Positions 6,373-57,968 of a DNA stretch of 60,026 nt are shown one piece after another (the first letter of the stretch is position 1; each line of letters starts with the position of its first letter). Made by a program: the position numbers and the translations under genes. The notes under the pieces are model-generated. The model saw nothing but the letters and a program-made list of their open reading frames with translations. It was not told the origin of the DNA and did no database searches. This stretch comes from a phage. The stretch is taken from the sequence record PV806339.1; one strand, given 5' to 3'.

Positions 6373-7685
6373 GCAACCACGTAAGAGCGAGCGTCTCAAT
6401 GGCGCTCAGTCGAATGAACGGCCAGCCGATCGCCATTCGCGAGAATGACCCGACGCTGCTGACCAACATGCAGCAGATGATGTCCTGCGATGACGAAGAT
6501 TTTCAGGAGCGCGCTGAACAGCAGATGCGCGAAAACCTGTGTGCAGCGTACGGCGTTGGCCGACCGTCTGCGGACAAGCCTTTCGCCTTCTCGAACGGCC
6601 TCGCCATCATCCCGATTCACGGCACCCTGATTAACCGCTATGGCGGGTATTACTACGGCTACGTGACGGGCTACAATTTTATCCGCAGTCAGCGTAATGC
6701 AGCGCTGGCCGACCCAGATGTCGAGGCTATCATCTACGACGTTAACTCGAACGGCGGGGAAGCAGCAGGCTGTTTCGAGCTGTCACAGGAAATGTTTGAT
6801 ACACGCGGCGAGAAACCTTCGCTGGCGGTTGTCGATTCAAACTGCTATTCTGCGGCATATGCGTTGGCGAGCGCAGCGGATAAAATCGTTGTAACGCCGT
6901 CCGGCGGTGCCGGAAGCATCGGTGTTATCGCCCTCCACATCGACATGTCGAAGATGTTGGCGGACATCGGTATCACCGTGAATATCATCAAGTCCGGGGA
7001 GCACAAAGCCGACGGCAACCCGTACGAACCAATGAGCGATGAAGTACGAGCAGACTGGCAAGCGAGCGTAGATTCAATGCGTACCGACTTCGTCAATCTT
7101 GTCGCTCAAAACAGGGATTTAGATCCGAAAGTGGTGCGCGACACCGAAGCGATGTGCTATAACGCTGGTGAAGCGATGTCAATCGGTCTAATTGACGCGG
7201 TATCAACGCCTTCGAAGGCTGTTACCGAATTCCTCAACGGGCCGTCCGATAACAGCCCGGATCACTCAGGAGCGAACGCAATGAGCTTTACGCAAGAAGA
7301 AATGGACGCAGCCCGCGCAGAGGCGGCGACCAACGAACGAACCCGCATTGCCGGGATCATGGGCTGTGATGCAGCGGCTAACCGTACCAAACTGGCAAAC
7401 CACATCGCCTTCAACACGAATATGTCCGTTGAAGACGCGACTGCAATGCTGACCAATTCCGCCGAAGAACCGAAAGCCGCTGTTACGACTACCGTCGTTG
7501 ACGCTGCTGCGCCGGGTAAAACCGGAACCGAAGCGAAGGGTGACAGCCCGTTCGATTCAGTGATGGCAAGCGCGGAACATCCTAACGCTGGTGCCGATGC
7601 AGGCAACGAGCAGGAAGGCGCGAAAGAAACGGCTGGCCTGATGGCGGCAATGACCGCTGTCGCTGGCAACAACATGGCTAAGTAA
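6369..7685 (+). CDS. prohead protease, S49/SppA family, lambda gpC-like
   Basis: ClpP/SppA-type segments IIYDVNSNGGEAAG and SAAYALASAADKIVVTPSGGAGSIGV. ATGA overlap with the portal gene. The C-terminal third is Ala/Glu-rich. Confidence 0.85.
   Translation: MSNHVRASVSMALSRMNGQPIAIRENDPTLLTNMQQMMSCDDEDFQERAEQQMRENLCAAYGVGRPSADKPFAFSNGLAIIPIHGTLINRYGGYYYGYVTGYNFIRSQRNAALADPDVEAIIYDVNSNGGEAAGCFELSQEMFDTRGEKPSLAVVDSNCYSAAYALASAADKIVVTPSGGAGSIGVIALHIDMSKMLADIGITVNIIKSGEHKADGNPYEPMSDEVRADWQASVDSMRTDFVNLVAQNRDLDPKVVRDTEAMCYNAGEAMSIGLIDAVSTPSKAVTEFLNGPSDNSPDHSGANAMSFTQEEMDAARAEAATNERTRIAGIMGCDAAANRTKLANHIAFNTNMSVEDATAMLTNSAEEPKAAVTTTVVDAAAPGKTGTEAKGDSPFDSVMASAEHPNAGADAGNEQEGAKETAGLMAAMTAVAGNNMAK
7281..7685 (+). 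CDS. nested in-frame scaffolding protein (lambda Nu3-like arrangement)
   Basis: Internal in-frame ATG at 7281, preceded by AGGAG (7268-7272) at 8-nt spacing. It encodes the Ala/Glu-rich C-terminal part of the protease ORF, mirroring lambda C/Nu3. Confidence 0.5.
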   Translation: MSFTQEEMDAARAEAATNERTRIAGIMGCDAAANRTKLANHIAFNTNMSVEDATAMLTNSAEEPKAAVTTTVVDAAAPGKTGTEAKGDSPFDSVMASAEHPNAGADAGNEQEGAKETAGLMAAMTAVAGNNMAK

Positions 7686-10545: not shown

Positions 10546-11045
10546 GTCAAAGGCTTGACATTCTTAAAGCATTGACAGCGCACCTTGAACAGATCACCAT
10601 TGAGAACGGATACGCCTACGACCTGAAAGGTAAAGTGTATCGCGGGCGCGACCGATTCGGCGCGGACTTCACGTCCAAACTGCCAATCGTGTCGATCCTC
10701 GAAGCGAAGGCCACGGACTACGGAGCCTTTGCCAACGAGGAACAGACCGTACGAATGGACGATTGGGTGCTGCTGGTGCAGGGGTGGGTCAAAGATGACC
10801 CGAGAAACCCGACCGACCCGGCGTACGAACTGCTGGCCGAGGTGGAAAAGCGACTGGCGATGTTGGTGGCGAAGGACGAGAACGGACAACCGATGTATCC
10901 GGCCCTCTACCGCTTGGGTGGGAAGATTGCTAAACTCACACTCGCGCAGCCCGTTGTCAGGCCACCCGAAGACGGCTTGTCCGATACAGCGTTTTTCTTC
11001 CTACCTGTTAGGGTAGGACTCAAAGTGGACATTAGGAATCCTTAA
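10542..11045 (+). CDS. tail terminator/completion protein (gpU-like position)
   Basis: 167 aa, ATGA-coupled to the previous gene, immediately upstream of the major tail gene. Confidence 0.5.
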   Translation: MSQRLDILKALTAHLEQITIENGYAYDLKGKVYRGRDRFGADFTSKLPIVSILEAKATDYGAFANEEQTVRMDDWVLLVQGWVKDDPRNPTDPAYELLAEVEKRLAMLVAKDENGQPMYPALYRLGGKIAKLTLAQPVVRPPEDGLSDTAFFFLPVRVGLKVDIRNP

Positions 11046-35984: not shown

Positions 35985-36262
35985 GCGGCGGCCCTCCCCC
36001 ATAAGATTTGTAGGGTGCATGGCGGCTCGTCCGGGTCGGAATAGATTTCGAACCCGGCGTCCTTGATCCAGCCGATAAGCATGGCGCGGGATTTATCGGA
36101 CAGCGGGTGGTCGTTGTGTAACAGCGCGACCGTAGTGGTGGTCAGCCCGGCCGATGCGGCCCGGCGGATAAGACGCTCTACCTCGCCACGTACTTCAATC
36201 GCTTCGGCGGTGTGGTGATCGGTAGCAGCTTTATACATTTCATCGGCAGTGATAGTCAGCAT
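35981..36262 (-). CDS. hypothetical protein (first gene of leftward operon 4)
   Basis: 93 aa. AGGGGG SD 5 nt upstream of the start, downstream of promoter 36306-36335. Confidence 0.75.
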   Translation of the reverse strand: MLTITADEMYKAATDHHTAEAIEVRGEVERLIRRAASAGLTTTTVALLHNDHPLSDKSRAMLIGWIKDAGFEIYSDPDEPPCTLQILWGRAAA

Positions 36263-36275
36263 GTTGCCCCCTAAA

Positions 36276-36305
36276 GTAAAAATCCCCGTTGTTGCCTTCG
36301 GGGAT
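36276..36305 (-). terminator. hairpin plus U-tract overlapping the discriminator of the adjacent promoter
   Basis: Minus strand reads ATCCCCG-aaggcaacaa-CGGGGAT-TTTTT. The 5' arm (36305-36299) begins immediately after the -10 element. Confidence 0.6.
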
Positions 36306-36335
36306 AATATAGGTTATACACGCGACGTATGTCAA
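36306..36335 (-). promoter_or_regulatory. sigma70-type early promoter, leftward operon 4
   Basis: Minus strand reads TTGACA-TACGTCGCGTGTATAACC-TATATT (18-bp spacer). The spacer carries the conserved box. Confidence 0.7.
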
Positions 36336-36342
36336 ACAGTTT

Positions 36343-36855
36343 CTAAGACTTTCTTTTCCGGGCGTGCTCCAGTCGATCACCGTGGCCCTTCTCGACCATG
36401 AAATCGCGGGTCTGTTTGTGCAGGTTGGCGATCGTCTCCTTCGTTTTCCGCCAGCGCGCCACTAACCCTTCGCGCACTTCCCGTTCGCGGAACAGGACGG
36501 CCAAGTCCGTCGCGGTGATGTCGTACCCTTCGCACGCGGCCAAAACTCCGGCCTTGAATTCGTAGAACAGGCTTTGGATCTCCCGGAATTCGGCCTCGGT
36601 TACGATCTCGATATTGACCGTTTTCCCTTCACCGATGTCGTCCTCGGTAAACAGGCACCCGGCTTCGCCAATGGCGCGGCCATCGTCCTTCCGGTAGCGC
36701 GTATTCCCTACGATGATCTGCGTCGGCGTGGTGCGCTCTACGCGTCGTTTCACGGCGAAGGTTACTTCCGGGCTGTACCCGATACGAATGCTGTTACGCT
36801 CCAGTGTCATGTCGCCAGTTTCGAGGTGTCCGAATCTCAATTTTTTATCGGCCAT
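36343..36855 (-). CDS. hypothetical protein
   Basis: 170 aa, last gene of leftward operon 3. Confidence 0.75.
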   Translation of the reverse strand: MADKKLRFGHLETGDMTLERNSIRIGYSPEVTFAVKRRVERTTPTQIIVGNTRYRKDDGRAIGEAGCLFTEDDIGEGKTVNIEIVTEAEFREIQSLFYEFKAGVLAACEGYDITATDLAVLFREREVREGLVARWRKTKETIANLHKQTRDFMVEKGHGDRLEHARKRKS

Positions 36856-37091
36856 TCTGCGTATTCTCCCTTCGGTAATTCGTCAGTCACGTCGCGCTCG
36901 GCCCATTTCAGGAACGCTTCGCGGGTGCAACTTGGATAGTGTCGGCCAAAGCCTACGACCGGGCCGTCATACTGGATGTGCGTGGCACCGATGTACAGGA
37001 TGGTGCGGTCGTTCACCAGTCCGCTGCGGTTCTGCGGCCGTTTACCGCGATAGGTGCGGCCGACTTTAAGTTTTAACGCTTCATCGGCCAT
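36837..37091 (-). CDS. hypothetical protein
   Basis: 84 aa, within the operon. Confidence 0.65.
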   Translation of the reverse strand: MADEALKLKVGRTYRGKRPQNRSGLVNDRTILYIGATHIQYDGPVVGFGRHYPSCTREAFLKWAERDVTDELPKGEYAEWPIKN

Positions 37092-37302
37092 CGGTGTCCA
37101 CCTCGACTTCGAACGTGCGCGGAACGGTCATGGTCAGCACGTCATTCTCGGTGAACGGTGACAGCGGTTCGTCGCCCGGCTGGAAGCGCAGCGTCACGCT
37201 GCCGACGTTGTGATACGTGATATAGCGAAGGCGGAACTGCTCGCCGAAGATGGTCGCGAGTACGCCCGGCTTAACGTCTCCTGCGGGAATTTTCATGGTC
37301 AT
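37081..37302 (-). CDS. hypothetical protein
   Basis: 73 aa when started at the ATGA overlap (37302). The ORF opens at 37326. Confidence 0.6.
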   Translation of the reverse strand: MTMKIPAGDVKPGVLATIFGEQFRLRYITYHNVGSVTLRFQPGDEPLSPFTENDVLTMTVPRTFEVEVDTDGR

Positions 37303-37493
37303 AGTCTCCAGTCTAACGGCTCCCATTGGCCGTCTCGTTTGATGTAGCAGCCGCTTAACGGGCTGTATTTGGTTGGTAGTTCGGTCTGGACGCTGACGTC
37401 GTTACACCCGATCGCCGCGCCCACACGGCCAATAACAAACAGCACACCGCAGATAATCAATACAAACAGCGTTAGCGCAGCGATCTTCTTCAT
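37299..37493 (-). CDS. small membrane protein
   Basis: 64 aa with an N-terminal TMD (IAALTLFVLIICGVLFVIG). Confidence 0.65.
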   Translation of the reverse strand: MKKIAALTLFVLIICGVLFVIGRVGAAIGCNDVSVQTELPTKYSPLSGCYIKRDGQWEPLDWRL

Positions 37494-37503
37494 GGTGGCC
37501 CCT

Positions 37504-38322
37504 TTATTCCTTCGGTGGATTTGATTGGTGGCGATTTAGCCAGATGACAATCCCGGCAGTATAATTGATCACGCCGAGCAACTCCCTAACCCTTTGGTCA
37601 TGCGTTGGCAGGTTGACGCCTTCTACGACCTTCTTGCACACCTGATAGACCAAGCCGAGCGGGCTACCGATCAGGTCGGAAATAGCGTTCATCGGCTGCT
37701 GGTGGAAAGGCAGGTCGTTTGCGTGGCGTTCCCGCCCTTTACCATACGCGGCTTGCGTCAGCGCATCATGCAGCACTTTGACTAATTCGGAATAATCGTT
37801 GCTGTCTTTGACGTCCCGGAATTCGTATTTCCATGACCGGGGGGCCGAAGGTGCCACGGCTTCCGGCGCGACGAGGGCTTCGTTAAGCGGCCAGCCCTGC
37901 GCGAAGGAGAACATGATGTAATTCATTGCGTCGATGTACTGATTCTCTTCGAGACAACGACGAATGGCGTCGGAACATTGCTTCGGCCAGTCCGGCTGCA
38001 TCCATCCCAATTCCAGTCCCGGGTTTTTGCGCTCGAACTGCACCAGACGGTCAAGCATGTAGCCGAAAGTCTTCTCGGCCTGTTCAACCGTTGGCGCGCT
38101 CAGTTTAGGGCGGCGCAGCACGATGACCGTCTCGGCGTCGGCGGCTTTCGGGATGGCGATCTGATTGTCCATCATGGAATTGATAAGTTCGAGAACGTGG
38201 TCGGTCGCGTCGTCGTCCGTTTCAAAGTCGTCCATGTCGAGGTTCAGTGCGTTCATCACTGAATTGCGGAAACGCTGCGCGGATGGCTTGCCAGCGTGCT
38301 TTTGTTTTGATGCGTCTACCAT
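37504..38322 (-). CDS. hypothetical protein (C-terminal YGKGRERH...INY motif, possibly all-alpha NTP-pyrophosphohydrolase-like)
   Basis: 272 aa, first gene after promoter 38362-38390. The family guess is weak and rests on the motif only. Confidence 0.7.
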   Translation of the reverse strand: MVDASKQKHAGKPSAQRFRNSVMNALNLDMDDFETDDDATDHVLELINSMMDNQIAIPKAADAETVIVLRRPKLSAPTVEQAEKTFGYMLDRLVQFERKNPGLELGWMQPDWPKQCSDAIRRCLEENQYIDAMNYIMFSFAQGWPLNEALVAPEAVAPSAPRSWKYEFRDVKDSNDYSELVKVLHDALTQAAYGKGRERHANDLPFHQQPMNAISDLIGSPLGLVYQVCKKVVEGVNLPTHDQRVRELLGVINYTAGIVIWLNRHQSNPPKE

Positions 38323-38324
38323 AA

Positions 38325-38360
38325 TAAAAAACTCCCGTTGGTGGATTAACCTTCGGGAGT
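38325..38360 (-). terminator. hairpin plus U-tract overlapping the initial transcribed region of the adjacent promoter
   Basis: Minus strand reads ACTCCCG-aaggttaatccaccaa-CGGGAGT-TTTTT. The 5' arm (38360-38354) starts 2 nt after the -10 element. The 3' arm contains the SD GGGAG of the next gene. Confidence 0.65.
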
Positions 38361-38361
38361 A

Positions 38362-38390
38362 ATATTAATTACACATGTCGCGTGTGTCAA
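38362..38390 (-). promoter_or_regulatory. sigma70-type early promoter, leftward operon 3
   Basis: Minus strand reads TTGACA-CACGCGACATGTGTAAT-TAATAT (17-bp spacer). The box is present in inverted orientation. Confidence 0.75.
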
Positions 38391-38399
38391 ACGCTTTCT

Positions 38400-39086
38400 T
38401 TAAATCTCGTCCCACATCTTGATCCAGCGGTTCCGGATCTTGGCCGATACGTTAGCCAGTGGCGCGCCGATTTCCAGTAGCGTTTCACGGTCGATATACT
38501 CGTTGGGGTGAATGCGGTCACTCTCCGGGTCGAAGATGTGGATGGCCGCGCCGAACCCGGCTGACGTGATTTCGCTGCTGCCTTCCTTCGGCCGGAACCA
38601 GACTGGCGGTTCAAACCCGATGCGCCCTTTGATGAAGATGGTACGCGTGGCGATAGCGTCCGGCCACCAGCTTTCTGATGTCGCGGACTTGGTCAGCCAG
38701 ATGGTTCCCGCACCTTTGGCCCGTTCTTCGTCGGCCTTGCGCATGATGTGCGTCATCCCGGTCAGGTGATCTTTCCCGGCGCGCTTCTGGCTGTAAGGGG
38801 GGTTAGCGTAGGCCCAAACGCGGGTCTTCTGGTCGAACCCGTCGCTGGCGTGGATCTCGGCCAGACGTTTTGACCAGTCCTGCTTTAACGCATTGTCTTC
38901 GGCGGTGAAGAAGCGCTGACATTTGGCGTTCTGGCCGTCGGTGAACAGGTCAAGCACGATTGGCCCGTACAGCTTGTTAATCGCTTGAAACAGCCATTCC
39001 GGCGTACGCCATTGGTCGCCGATCATCTTTGGTTCGTGTTCGTCCATGTTTTTCATGGCGTTGAGTGCATCAACATACTGGCTCAT
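38400..39086 (-). CDS. dam: DNA N6-adenine methyltransferase (phage Dam family)
   Basis: DQWRTPEWLF...LDLFT, the catalytic NPPYS motif and the C-terminal FIKGRIGF match the phage Dam (T1-type) family pattern. Confidence 0.8.
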   Translation of the reverse strand: MSQYVDALNAMKNMDEHEPKMIGDQWRTPEWLFQAINKLYGPIVLDLFTDGQNAKCQRFFTAEDNALKQDWSKRLAEIHASDGFDQKTRVWAYANPPYSQKRAGKDHLTGMTHIMRKADEERAKGAGTIWLTKSATSESWWPDAIATRTIFIKGRIGFEPPVWFRPKEGSSEITSAGFGAAIHIFDPESDRIHPNEYIDRETLLEIGAPLANVSAKIRNRWIKMWDEI

Positions 39087-41582: not shown

Positions 41583-41603
41583 ATAACTTTATTCGGGGCA
41601 AAA

Positions 41604-41634
41604 GAAAGCCCGCGTAAAGGGATTGCGGGCTTTT
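41604..41634. terminator. bidirectional rho-independent terminator ending leftward operon 1
   Basis: AAAGCCCGC-gtaaagggatt-GCGGGCTTT, with T-runs on both strands (the minus strand continues TTTCTTTT). Confidence 0.85.
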
Positions 41635-44869: not shown

Positions 44870-44898
44870 ACAATAGTTCTACACGCGACGTATGTCAA
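44870..44898 (-). promoter_or_regulatory. sigma70-type early promoter, leftward operon 1
   Basis: Minus strand reads TTGACA-TACGTCGCGTGTAGAAC-TATTGT (17-bp spacer) with the conserved box. Confidence 0.7.
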
Positions 44899-44948
44899 TT
44901 CATTTCATCCAGTAATTATGATGACCGGGTGACACTCCAGTTTAGTTT

Positions 44949-45187
44949 CAGCCGGATGACTTTTTGAAGTAAGGCGGGTGGCCGGGCCGCCGGGCTTCAA
45001 CCGGGTAACTTTTTCAAGTAAGCGCGGAACGTCGCAACGACAACCGGACAGGTTTTTCAAGTAAGCCCGTCAGCCGGGTGAAATTGCCCCGACGCTGGTG
45101 GACAAAACCGTCAGCCGGGTAGGTTTTTGAAGTAAGAACTGGCCGCGTCGTTCAAAATTTTTCAACCGGGTAACTTTTTCAAGTAAG
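44949..45187 (+). repeat. five ~25-bp iterons CA(A/G)CCGG(G/A)(T/C)RNNTTTTT(C/G)AAGTAAG
   Basis: Copies at 44949-44973, 44998-45022, 45041-45065, 45112-45136 and 45163-45187. Copies 2 and 5 are identical. Partial copies lie at 44921-44940 and 45071-45085. Confidence 0.9.
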
Positions 45188-45493
45188 CCCGTCGGGAATT
45201 TTTATAGAGAAAGTCAGGCCCGGCGCGGCCTGCCGTTGTGGGCGGTTGTCGTTTTTGGCGGGATTTCGTACAAATCGTTATAAATCAACGGCTTAACCTA
45301 TGCGCCGATCGGCCTGTTTTGGCCCGGTTGGCGTCGGTTTTTCGTATAGAGTTCAAGTGTTTAGGACGTGGCGCGGTGTGCCGTTTGGCGGTGTGCCGGG
45401 GCGGGGGCCGTGGGGCGCGGCGGTGCAATGCGGCCCGGCGTGGCGATCGGTGGCGCTTTTATGTGCGGTTAATCAAATAATATGAAAAAAGAT

Positions 45494-45523
45494 TTGACGC
45501 ACGCCGCGTATATCATTTACATT
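45494..45523 (+). promoter_or_regulatory. sigma70-type promoter, rightward cassette 1
   Basis: TTGACG-CACGCCGCGTATATCATT-TACATT, followed by the leader hairpin CCC-TTCG-GGG. About 65 bp are shared with the promoter at 48128. Confidence 0.65.
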
Positions 45524-45587
45524 TAAATTCCCTTCGGGGGACGGGGCAAAAAGTCCCGGCGATAAACTAACTTTATGAGGTGTCACG

Positions 45588-48127: not shown

Positions 48128-48157
48128 TTGACGCACGCCGCGTATATCATCTATTAT
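48128..48157 (+). promoter_or_regulatory. sigma70-type promoter, rightward cassette 2
   Basis: TTGACG-CACGCCGCGTATATCATC-TATTAT (18-bp spacer), followed by the same CCC-TTCG-GGG leader. Confidence 0.7.
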
Positions 48158-48218
48158 TAAATTCCCTTCGGGGGCCGGGGGCAATGGGGCCGACGGTTAT
48201 CAAAACAGGTACATAAAA

Positions 48219-51990: not shown

Positions 51991-52021
51991 AAAATAAGGC
52001 CGGATTTCCCGGCCTTTTTAT
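51991..52021. terminator. bidirectional terminator between convergent genes
   Basis: AAGGCCGG-atttc-CCGGCCTT, flanked by an A-run upstream and a T-run downstream. Confidence 0.85.
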
Positions 52022-57942: not shown

Positions 57943-57968
57943 AAGGCCCGCCGCGTGCGGGCTTTTTT
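57943..57968 (+). terminator. rho-independent terminator after the SSB gene
   Basis: GCCCGC-cgcgt-GCGGGC followed by TTTTTT. Confidence 0.9.

Follow-up and report, generated by a model that had tools for sequence, protein, structure and literature searches.

At two boundaries between leftward early transcription units, Chi-like phages (Casjensviridae) carry a compact composite element in which a strong sigma70 promoter comes first and a terminator-like hairpin with a T-tract follows immediately after its -10 hexamer. We analyzed this element in PV806339.1, the 60,026-nt genome of a Salmonella phage of the Chivirus group (the whole sequence is called the window below), and in related phages. 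The hairpin begins 0 or 1 nt past the -10 and is conserved together with its T-tract across genera. As the best explanation, supported by comparative and thermodynamic evidence, we propose a terminator that would act only on read-through transcripts, and we put the probability of this mechanism at about 0.65. With slightly less assurance, we also favor the broader view that Chi-like phages have conserved promoter-first composite elements in which a start inside the 5' arm would set both termination and access to the ribosome-binding site (RBS).

Both junctions are on the minus strand, and their parts are given in the direction of transcription. Junction 1 comprises the following:

38385..38390, minus strand: -35 hexamer TTGACA, 9 nt past the gp52 stop codon (from the sequence and a promoter scan)
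38362..38367, minus strand: -10 hexamer TAATAT after a 17-nt spacer, followed by a single T at 38361
38354..38360, minus strand: hairpin 5' arm ACTCCCG, which doubles as the promoter discriminator
38353..38355, minus strand: predicted sigma70 start window C, G, A, 7 to 9 nt past the -10 (by the rule in PMC5730371)
38338..38353, minus strand: 16-nt loop, inside which is a small GGU/ACC stem; relatives differ in loop length and sequence
38331..38337, minus strand: 3' arm CGGGAGT, which includes the gp51 Shine-Dalgarno (SD) sequence GGGAG
38326..38330, minus strand: T-tract TTTTT, which doubles as the SD-ATG spacer (UUUUU-A-UU in the RNA)
38322-38320, minus strand: gp51 ATG, after TTTTT and ATT

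Junction 2 has the same order of parts, with a separate SD:

36330..36335, minus strand: -35 hexamer TTGACA, 7 nt past the gp47 stop codon (36343-36345)
36306..36311, minus strand: -10 hexamer TATATT after an 18-nt spacer
36299..36305, minus strand: 5' arm ATCCCCG, directly 3' of the -10 and followed by a 10-nt loop
36297..36299, minus strand: predicted start window G, A, A, 7 to 9 nt past the -10 (by the rule in PMC5730371)
36282..36288, minus strand: 3' arm CGGGGAT (from the sequence, a terminator scan, and folding)
36273..36281, minus strand: interrupted T-tract TTTTACTTT, made up of TTTT (36281-36278), AC, and TTT
36272-36267, minus strand: separate SD AGGGGG, followed by CAAC and the gp46 ATG (36262-36260)

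At junction 1, the -10 hexamer TAATAT, the hairpin ACTCCCG...CGGGAGT, and the U-tract can be read directly from the sequence where the original prediction had placed them. Its positions for the junction 2 -10 and hairpin are likewise correct, but the UUUUU that it described there is actually UUUU-AC-UUU. A promoter scan found 10/12 (junction 1) and 11/12 (junction 2) matches to sigma70 hexamers, scores among the best in the region, and both promoters have these hexamers at a spacing of 17±1 nt. An alternative -10, TATAAC, inside the junction 2 spacer was rejected, as it would give a spacer of 11 nt.

Each hairpin has a GC-rich, 7-bp stem, offset from the -10 by 1 nt at junction 1 and 0 nt at junction 2. 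Both junctions show the GC-rich stem-loop and adjoining U-tract of intrinsic terminators, and the U-tract is weaker at junction 2. About 20 distinct hairpin-plus-T sites turn up on the minus strand of 60 kb in a relaxed terminator scan (stem of at least 6 bp, loop of 3 to 18 nt, at least 5 T in 7), and the chance that such a site begins 0 to 2 nt past a given -10 is about 1e-3. For the five minus-strand promoters, chance would give about 0.005 coincidences, against two observed (P for two or more, ~1e-5). A bidirectional terminator was considered and rejected: on the plus strand, the complement of the hairpin is followed by the AT-mixed complement of the -10 with no T-run, and there are no plus-strand genes there.

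RNA folding separates the two classes of transcript. The full hairpin folds with -14.6 kcal/mol at junction 1 (z -3.6) and -11.0 kcal/mol at junction 2 (z -3.1), and adding about 100 nt of upstream RNA leaves both hairpins intact in the minimum-energy structure and in the centroid. RNAs starting 7 or 8 nt past the -10, in contrast, have only ~0 to -2.6 kcal/mol over the hairpin segment, and truncated leaders extended to the start codon reach -3.2 and -4.1 kcal/mol, a stability not exceeding that of shuffled sequence. The original prediction, that only read-through RNA can fold these hairpins, is supported by these calculations, in which the truncated class spans ~0 to -4 kcal/mol.

Where transcripts begin is central to the proposed mechanism. 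Escherichia coli RNA polymerase starts most often 7 bp past the -10, and positions 6 to 9 account for essentially all starts; pyrimidine-rich discriminators move the start downstream, with a CCT discriminator shifting it to position 9 (PMC5730371). The discriminators at both junctions are pyrimidine-rich. From this rule we infer starts at C38355, G38354, or A38353 and at G36299, A36298, or A36297, with at most 1 to 2 nt of the 5' arm transcribed, in agreement with the earlier expectation of a start inside or beyond that arm. The likeliest start at junction 1 would be G38354, which follows a pyrimidine; in each of 13 aligned cassettes, described below, an invariant G follows a pyrimidine at position 7 or 8 past the -10. 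Local transcripts, which would include at most the final one or two bases of the 5' arm and might even start within the loop, should be unable to form the hairpin.

We propose that a separate strong sigma70 promoter drives each of the four transcription units in the leftward early cluster, and that at two of the three internal boundaries the promoter comes first and is followed by an intrinsic terminator whose 5' arm would take up the 7 nt that separate the -10 from the start site. Incoming RNA polymerase would transcribe both arms, the hairpin would form beside the U-tract, and the transcript would end just before the next start codon. Locally initiated RNA, having no hairpin, would pass the U-tract and carry an unstructured leader. 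At junction 1, where the SD is part of the 3' arm, an upstream transcript that escaped termination would have the gp51 SD paired. The narrow offset of 0 to 1 nt could be explained in the same way, since, in a promoter-first order, only a 5' arm between the -10 and the start would spare both the AT-rich -10 and the element's own transcript.

Relatives of the window allowed this arrangement to be followed across genera. The 4-kb region around both junctions shares 92 to 98% identity with about 100 Chivirus genomes, among them that of Salmonella phage Chi. A 111-nt junction 1 query matched 137 phage records, with a single place spanning at least 80% of the query in 109, and the matches include other genera in which the flanking genes have diverged past DNA-level detection. 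We compared the regions in Siskin (Chivirus), Soft and KPN N98 (Yonseivirus), PibeRecoleta and PSTCR9 (Redjacvirus), Enc34 (Enchivirus), JC01 (Jacunavirus), and Yersinia phage Rostov 43, together with Proteus, Erwinia, and Aeromonas phages that are more distant; one further cassette variant came from scanning metagenomes for the promoter-spacer pattern. Altogether, we found 15 versions of the cassette sequence, which come from Chivirus, Enchivirus, Redjacvirus, Yonseivirus, Jacunavirus, the unclassified Yersinia phage, and one metagenome contig. All 15 have a hairpin 0 to 1 nt past the -10 and at least 5 T in 7 nt, and the TTGACA -35 is invariant in all cassette promoters across genera. Among the family promoters compared, none has a clean hairpin and T-tract entirely downstream of the expected start.

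The stems themselves differ, with at least five different sequences among the 15 versions and loops of 4 to 16 nt. In addition to ACTCCCG/CGGGAGT and ATCCCCG/CGGGGAT, the latter lengthened to ATCCCCGTAG/CTGCGGGGAT in Rostov 43, several stems stand ahead of genes with no detectable match in the window: AACCCTGTAT/ATACGGGGTT with T7 in Providencia phages, GCTCCTGTAG/CTACCGGAGC with T6 and CCCCTTG/CGAGGGG with T5 in Cronobacter phage JC01, a second Rostov 43 stem (ACCCCTGA/TCAGGGGT), and a stem of the type GCTCCTG(TAG)/(CTAC)CAGGAGC in metagenome contig L035. Near-identical cassettes also occur ahead of unrelated genes in different genera, with two copies per genome. Some cassettes are at orthologous junctions, where the downstream gp51 homologues are 35 to 45% identical and the gp46 homologues 42%; at one of these, Rostov 43 has ATCCCCGTAG/CTGCGGGGAT with a 5-nt loop, compared to ACTCCCG with a 16-nt loop in the window.

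Changes in the two arms are coordinated. In an alignment of 13 sequences from six genera, all 91 of 91 cells of the 7-bp helix are standard pairs, compensatory (both-side) changes occur in 4 of the 7 pairs, and 0 of 500 shuffles reach the covariation score; slid registers are at most 59% paired. For the cassettes JC01 12607 and Rostov 5685, MAFFT set the 3' side one column out of register, and these were excluded from the covariation count and checked by hand. The T columns are nearly invariant in the 13 aligned cassettes, and the T-tract is also kept in cassettes with the SD further downstream. These patterns indicate that the hairpin is under selection as an RNA structure. Terminator features predicted by others overlie the junction 1 hairpin and overlap the RBS in Siskin, Season12, and Soft, and in Siskin the annotated terminator contains the RBS.

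Loops of the junction 1 type, at 38349-38343 in the window and in relatives, contain an A/T-rich TAAT/AAAT core (GGTTAATCC, GGTAAATCC, GCTAATCAC). This -10-like core would span roughly +6 to +12 in the predicted transcript and is missing from junction 2-type loops.

Of the alternatives, a mainly translational role survives best. Here, the entering RNA would pair an anti-SD with the next RBS, and local RNA would be translated, as in the fold-back of IS10 and IS50. In those elements, as reportedly described by Davis, Simons and Kleckner in 1985 and by Krebs and Reznikoff in 1986, transcription is said to start inside the inverted repeat, and only outside transcripts sequester the RBS. The 3' arm is indeed the SD at junction 1 and in Soft, Providencia 12027, both JC01 cassettes, and the metagenome contig, and anti-SD/SD hairpins with no T-tract begin 0 to 3 nt past the -10 in Proteus phage PM87 and Aeromonas phage 13AC503A. 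However, hairpin and T-tract persist at junction 2 and in Enc34 13355, Providencia 14991, and both Rostov 43 cassettes, where the SD lies further downstream, and the near invariance of the T-tract also speaks against translation as the main role, which we consider unlikely. Such a role is compatible with termination but is not the common denominator. Because the hairpin and T-tract are kept where the SD is separate, termination would be the feature common to all cassettes, and SD sequestration appears to be added in some. The anti-SD/SD and PM87 hairpin sites are as follows:

L024 (PM87), 7280-7330
L024 (PM87), 10968-11020
L025 (13AC503A), 7112-7170

Far less probable is a promoter-proximal terminator acting on the element's own transcripts, with a start further upstream and an antiterminator opening the hairpin as at lambda PR'-tR'. 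The hairpin does lie within about 30 nt of the promoter, and the TAAT/AAAT motif of junction 1-type loops could act as a sigma-dependent pause signal, but this motif is not shared by the junction 2 type, the 5' arm begins 0 to 1 nt past the -10, and no alternative -10 is found at a workable distance from the invariant TTGACA. Already disfavored, and similarly improbable, is the absence of any selected RNA structure, in which case the hairpin would simply follow from having a C-rich discriminator, a U-rich spacer, and an SD, or would be a DNA operator for a protein: hairpin-less family promoters also carry TCTC/TCCC past the -10, but the compensatory changes in 4/7 pairs, the 10-bp stems with 4- to 5-nt loops at the same position, and the presence of the hairpin where the SD is separate argue for a structure, and loop lengths of 4 to 16 nt are unsuited to a fixed operator.

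Several observations weigh against a read-through-only terminator. The stems are short (7 bp), the loops are long (10 to 16 nt), the junction 2 T-tract is interrupted, and the Siskin annotation marks no terminator at junction 2; for these reasons, termination may be only partial, especially at junction 2. Incoming polymerase would have to cross the promoter before terminating, and a promoter-bound polymerase would block access to the terminator. The original prediction described a compact insulator-plus-promoter design; the stop-to-start gaps of 77 nt (junction 1) and 80 nt (junction 2) are indeed compact, but "insulator" is an overstatement, as the promoter would have no protection from occlusion. 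C/T-rich discriminators are general in this promoter family and inherently SD complementary, and the junction 1 pairing could in part be a by-product of this. The rightward internal promoter at 48128 has no terminator in the relaxed hairpin-plus-T scan, and unit separation is thus not a general rule in this genome. Finally, the searchable literature reports no mapped start site or 3' end for Chi-like phages. An RNA-seq study of Serratia phage JS26, a distant relative, did not map 5' or 3' ends, the LUZ7 ONT-cappable-seq paper describes no comparable case, and a literature search for a published start site inside a terminator hairpin returned nothing usable.

A conventional terminator in the same leftward cluster serves as a reference for the read-through-only terminator that we propose:

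41598..41632, minus strand: AAGCCCGC, an 11-nt loop, and GCGGGCTT, followed by TCTTTTGC; about 15 nt upstream of the next -35

Its hairpin (41632-41606, followed by TCTTTT) folds with -14.8 kcal/mol, and the next promoter is at 41583-41555. The terminator-then-promoter order at this gp56/gp55 junction is kept in four other genera. In energy, long loop, promoter family, and role at a unit boundary, the segment 41632-41555 resembles the two composite elements, but here terminator and promoter do not overlap and the gap is 189 nt, compared to 77 to 80 nt. Because the conventional terminator has a similar energy and loop, long loops and stems of about 7 to 9 bp appear to be normal for terminators of this phage.

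Composite promoter-terminator elements are known from other systems. The PeSLs of T4-like phages (RB49/phi1, PST, and nt-1; PMC2839356, PMC4122927) likewise combine a strong sigma70-type promoter, a stem-loop that terminates incoming transcription, an SD, and an ATG in a compact cassette, and in both cases the stem-loop is positioned such that RNA from the cassette's own promoter would lack it. In PeSLs, however, the stem is in the promoter spacer (PMC2839356), whereas here it is downstream of the -10 and spans the predicted start; the spacer here instead holds a conserved operator-like motif, and a PeSL-like stem may be unavailable for that reason. PeSLs also occur in dozens of copies in hyperplastic regions, flank ORFans, and drive recombination, in contrast to the two copies per genome found here; no sign of shuffling emerged for these, with recombination junctions not examined. 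The PM87 stem GCGGGGGA/TCCCCCGT spans the -10 hexamer and is PeSL-like.

Bacterial promoter-coupled terminators (Fletcher et al., bioRxiv 10.64898/2026.08.19.745784) similarly share DNA between terminator and promoter and shorten the gap between tandem genes. In these, termination occurs about 10 bp before the start, with the T-tract adjoining the -10 and the stem overlapping the -35, an order that is reversed here. Predicted termination in the phage element is about 25 to 30 nt downstream of the predicted start; the bacterial class is defined by a distance within 35 bp on the same strand. A further difference is that the transcript classes of the phage element would differ in carrying the 5' arm. 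In IS200, a terminator at nt 12-34, just upstream of the start near nt 40, blocks impinging transcription (PMC4513863), but this terminator is wholly upstream of the start. The phage element would combine termination with fold-back. It would share its principle with IS10 and IS50, which are known to block translation only and are not known to carry a U-tract. The IS10/IS50 geometry, with the 3' arm over the RBS, is matched at junction 1 if the predicted start is correct, but not at junction 2, where the SD is separate. We therefore regard the phage element as a variant of known composite promoter-terminator elements with the order reversed, which extends known concepts without a new principle.

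If this interpretation is correct, the element would join PeSLs and promoter-coupled terminators as a third way for a terminator to overlap the following promoter, and would be the only one of the three in which terminator DNA is shared while RNA structure differs between transcript classes. One cassette of 75 to 80 nt would hold a promoter, a terminator specific for incoming transcription, an SD, and a spacer. This would explain how Chi-like phages keep separate early units despite gaps of <80 nt, and it would caution annotators that a predicted terminator over an RBS need not silence the downstream gene. The element could also serve as a very short part for synthetic operons, stopping incoming transcription and restarting it, and other compact phage genomes may harbor elements built on the same logic that have so far been overlooked.

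Both junctions are within the leftward early gene cluster corresponding to Chi genes gp62 to gp41. Upstream of junction 1, gp52 encodes a Dam-type methylase (stop codon at 38400-38402, minus strand), and the remaining genes flanking the junctions have no Pfam match. Rfam gave no match at gathering thresholds in the whole window, nor by E-value in 36200-38450. The first leftward promoter (44870..44898, minus strand) has no hairpin with a T-tract, and no same-strand transcription enters it from upstream. A terminator-like hairpin accompanies every one of the three internal leftward promoters, in promoter-first order at two of them. IMG/VR searches with gp51 and the promoter pattern returned only four Chi-like contigs and three distant relatives; in the latter, the gp51 homologue adjoins the upstream gene with no promoter between them, and these are uninformative about the junction.

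Each rightward promoter (45494 and 48128, plus strand) is followed by a CCC-UUCG-GGG tetraloop hairpin 6 nt past the -10. This hairpin is thus not at a position equivalent to that of the leftward hairpins, as had been claimed, since these begin 0 to 1 nt past the -10. A second GC-rich hairpin is also present, and neither hairpin has a T-tract. Both hairpins (45530-45558 and 48164-48197, plus strand) are likely 5'-terminal stabilizing structures of the transcripts that these promoters make. Two hairpins further along the rightward early region, at 51996-52016 and 57944-57964, have T-runs on both strands and are candidate bidirectional terminators.

All of the strong promoters share a spacer motif just past the -35, TTGACA-yACG-n3-CGTGT-A, at these positions:

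36329-36317, minus strand
38384-38370, minus strand (junction 1, where the motif is inverted)
41577-41565, minus strand
44892-44880, minus strand
45500-45512, plus strand
48134-48146, plus strand

In Klebsiella phage Soft, the motif is a perfect inverted repeat, ACACGnnnCGTGT. The spacer motif is probably the operator of a phage regulator acting on all early promoters. Between the divergent early promoters, at 44947-45191, are five copies of a repeat of about 31 nt (TTCAACCGGGTAACTTTTTCAAGTAAG...), spaced 43 to 71 nt apart; these resemble iterons and may mark a replication origin. GenBank also holds near-identical Chi-like sequence labeled as Staphylococcus phage SA1 (within a 147-kb record) and in short "Listeria phage" records, which suggests contamination or chimeric assemblies.

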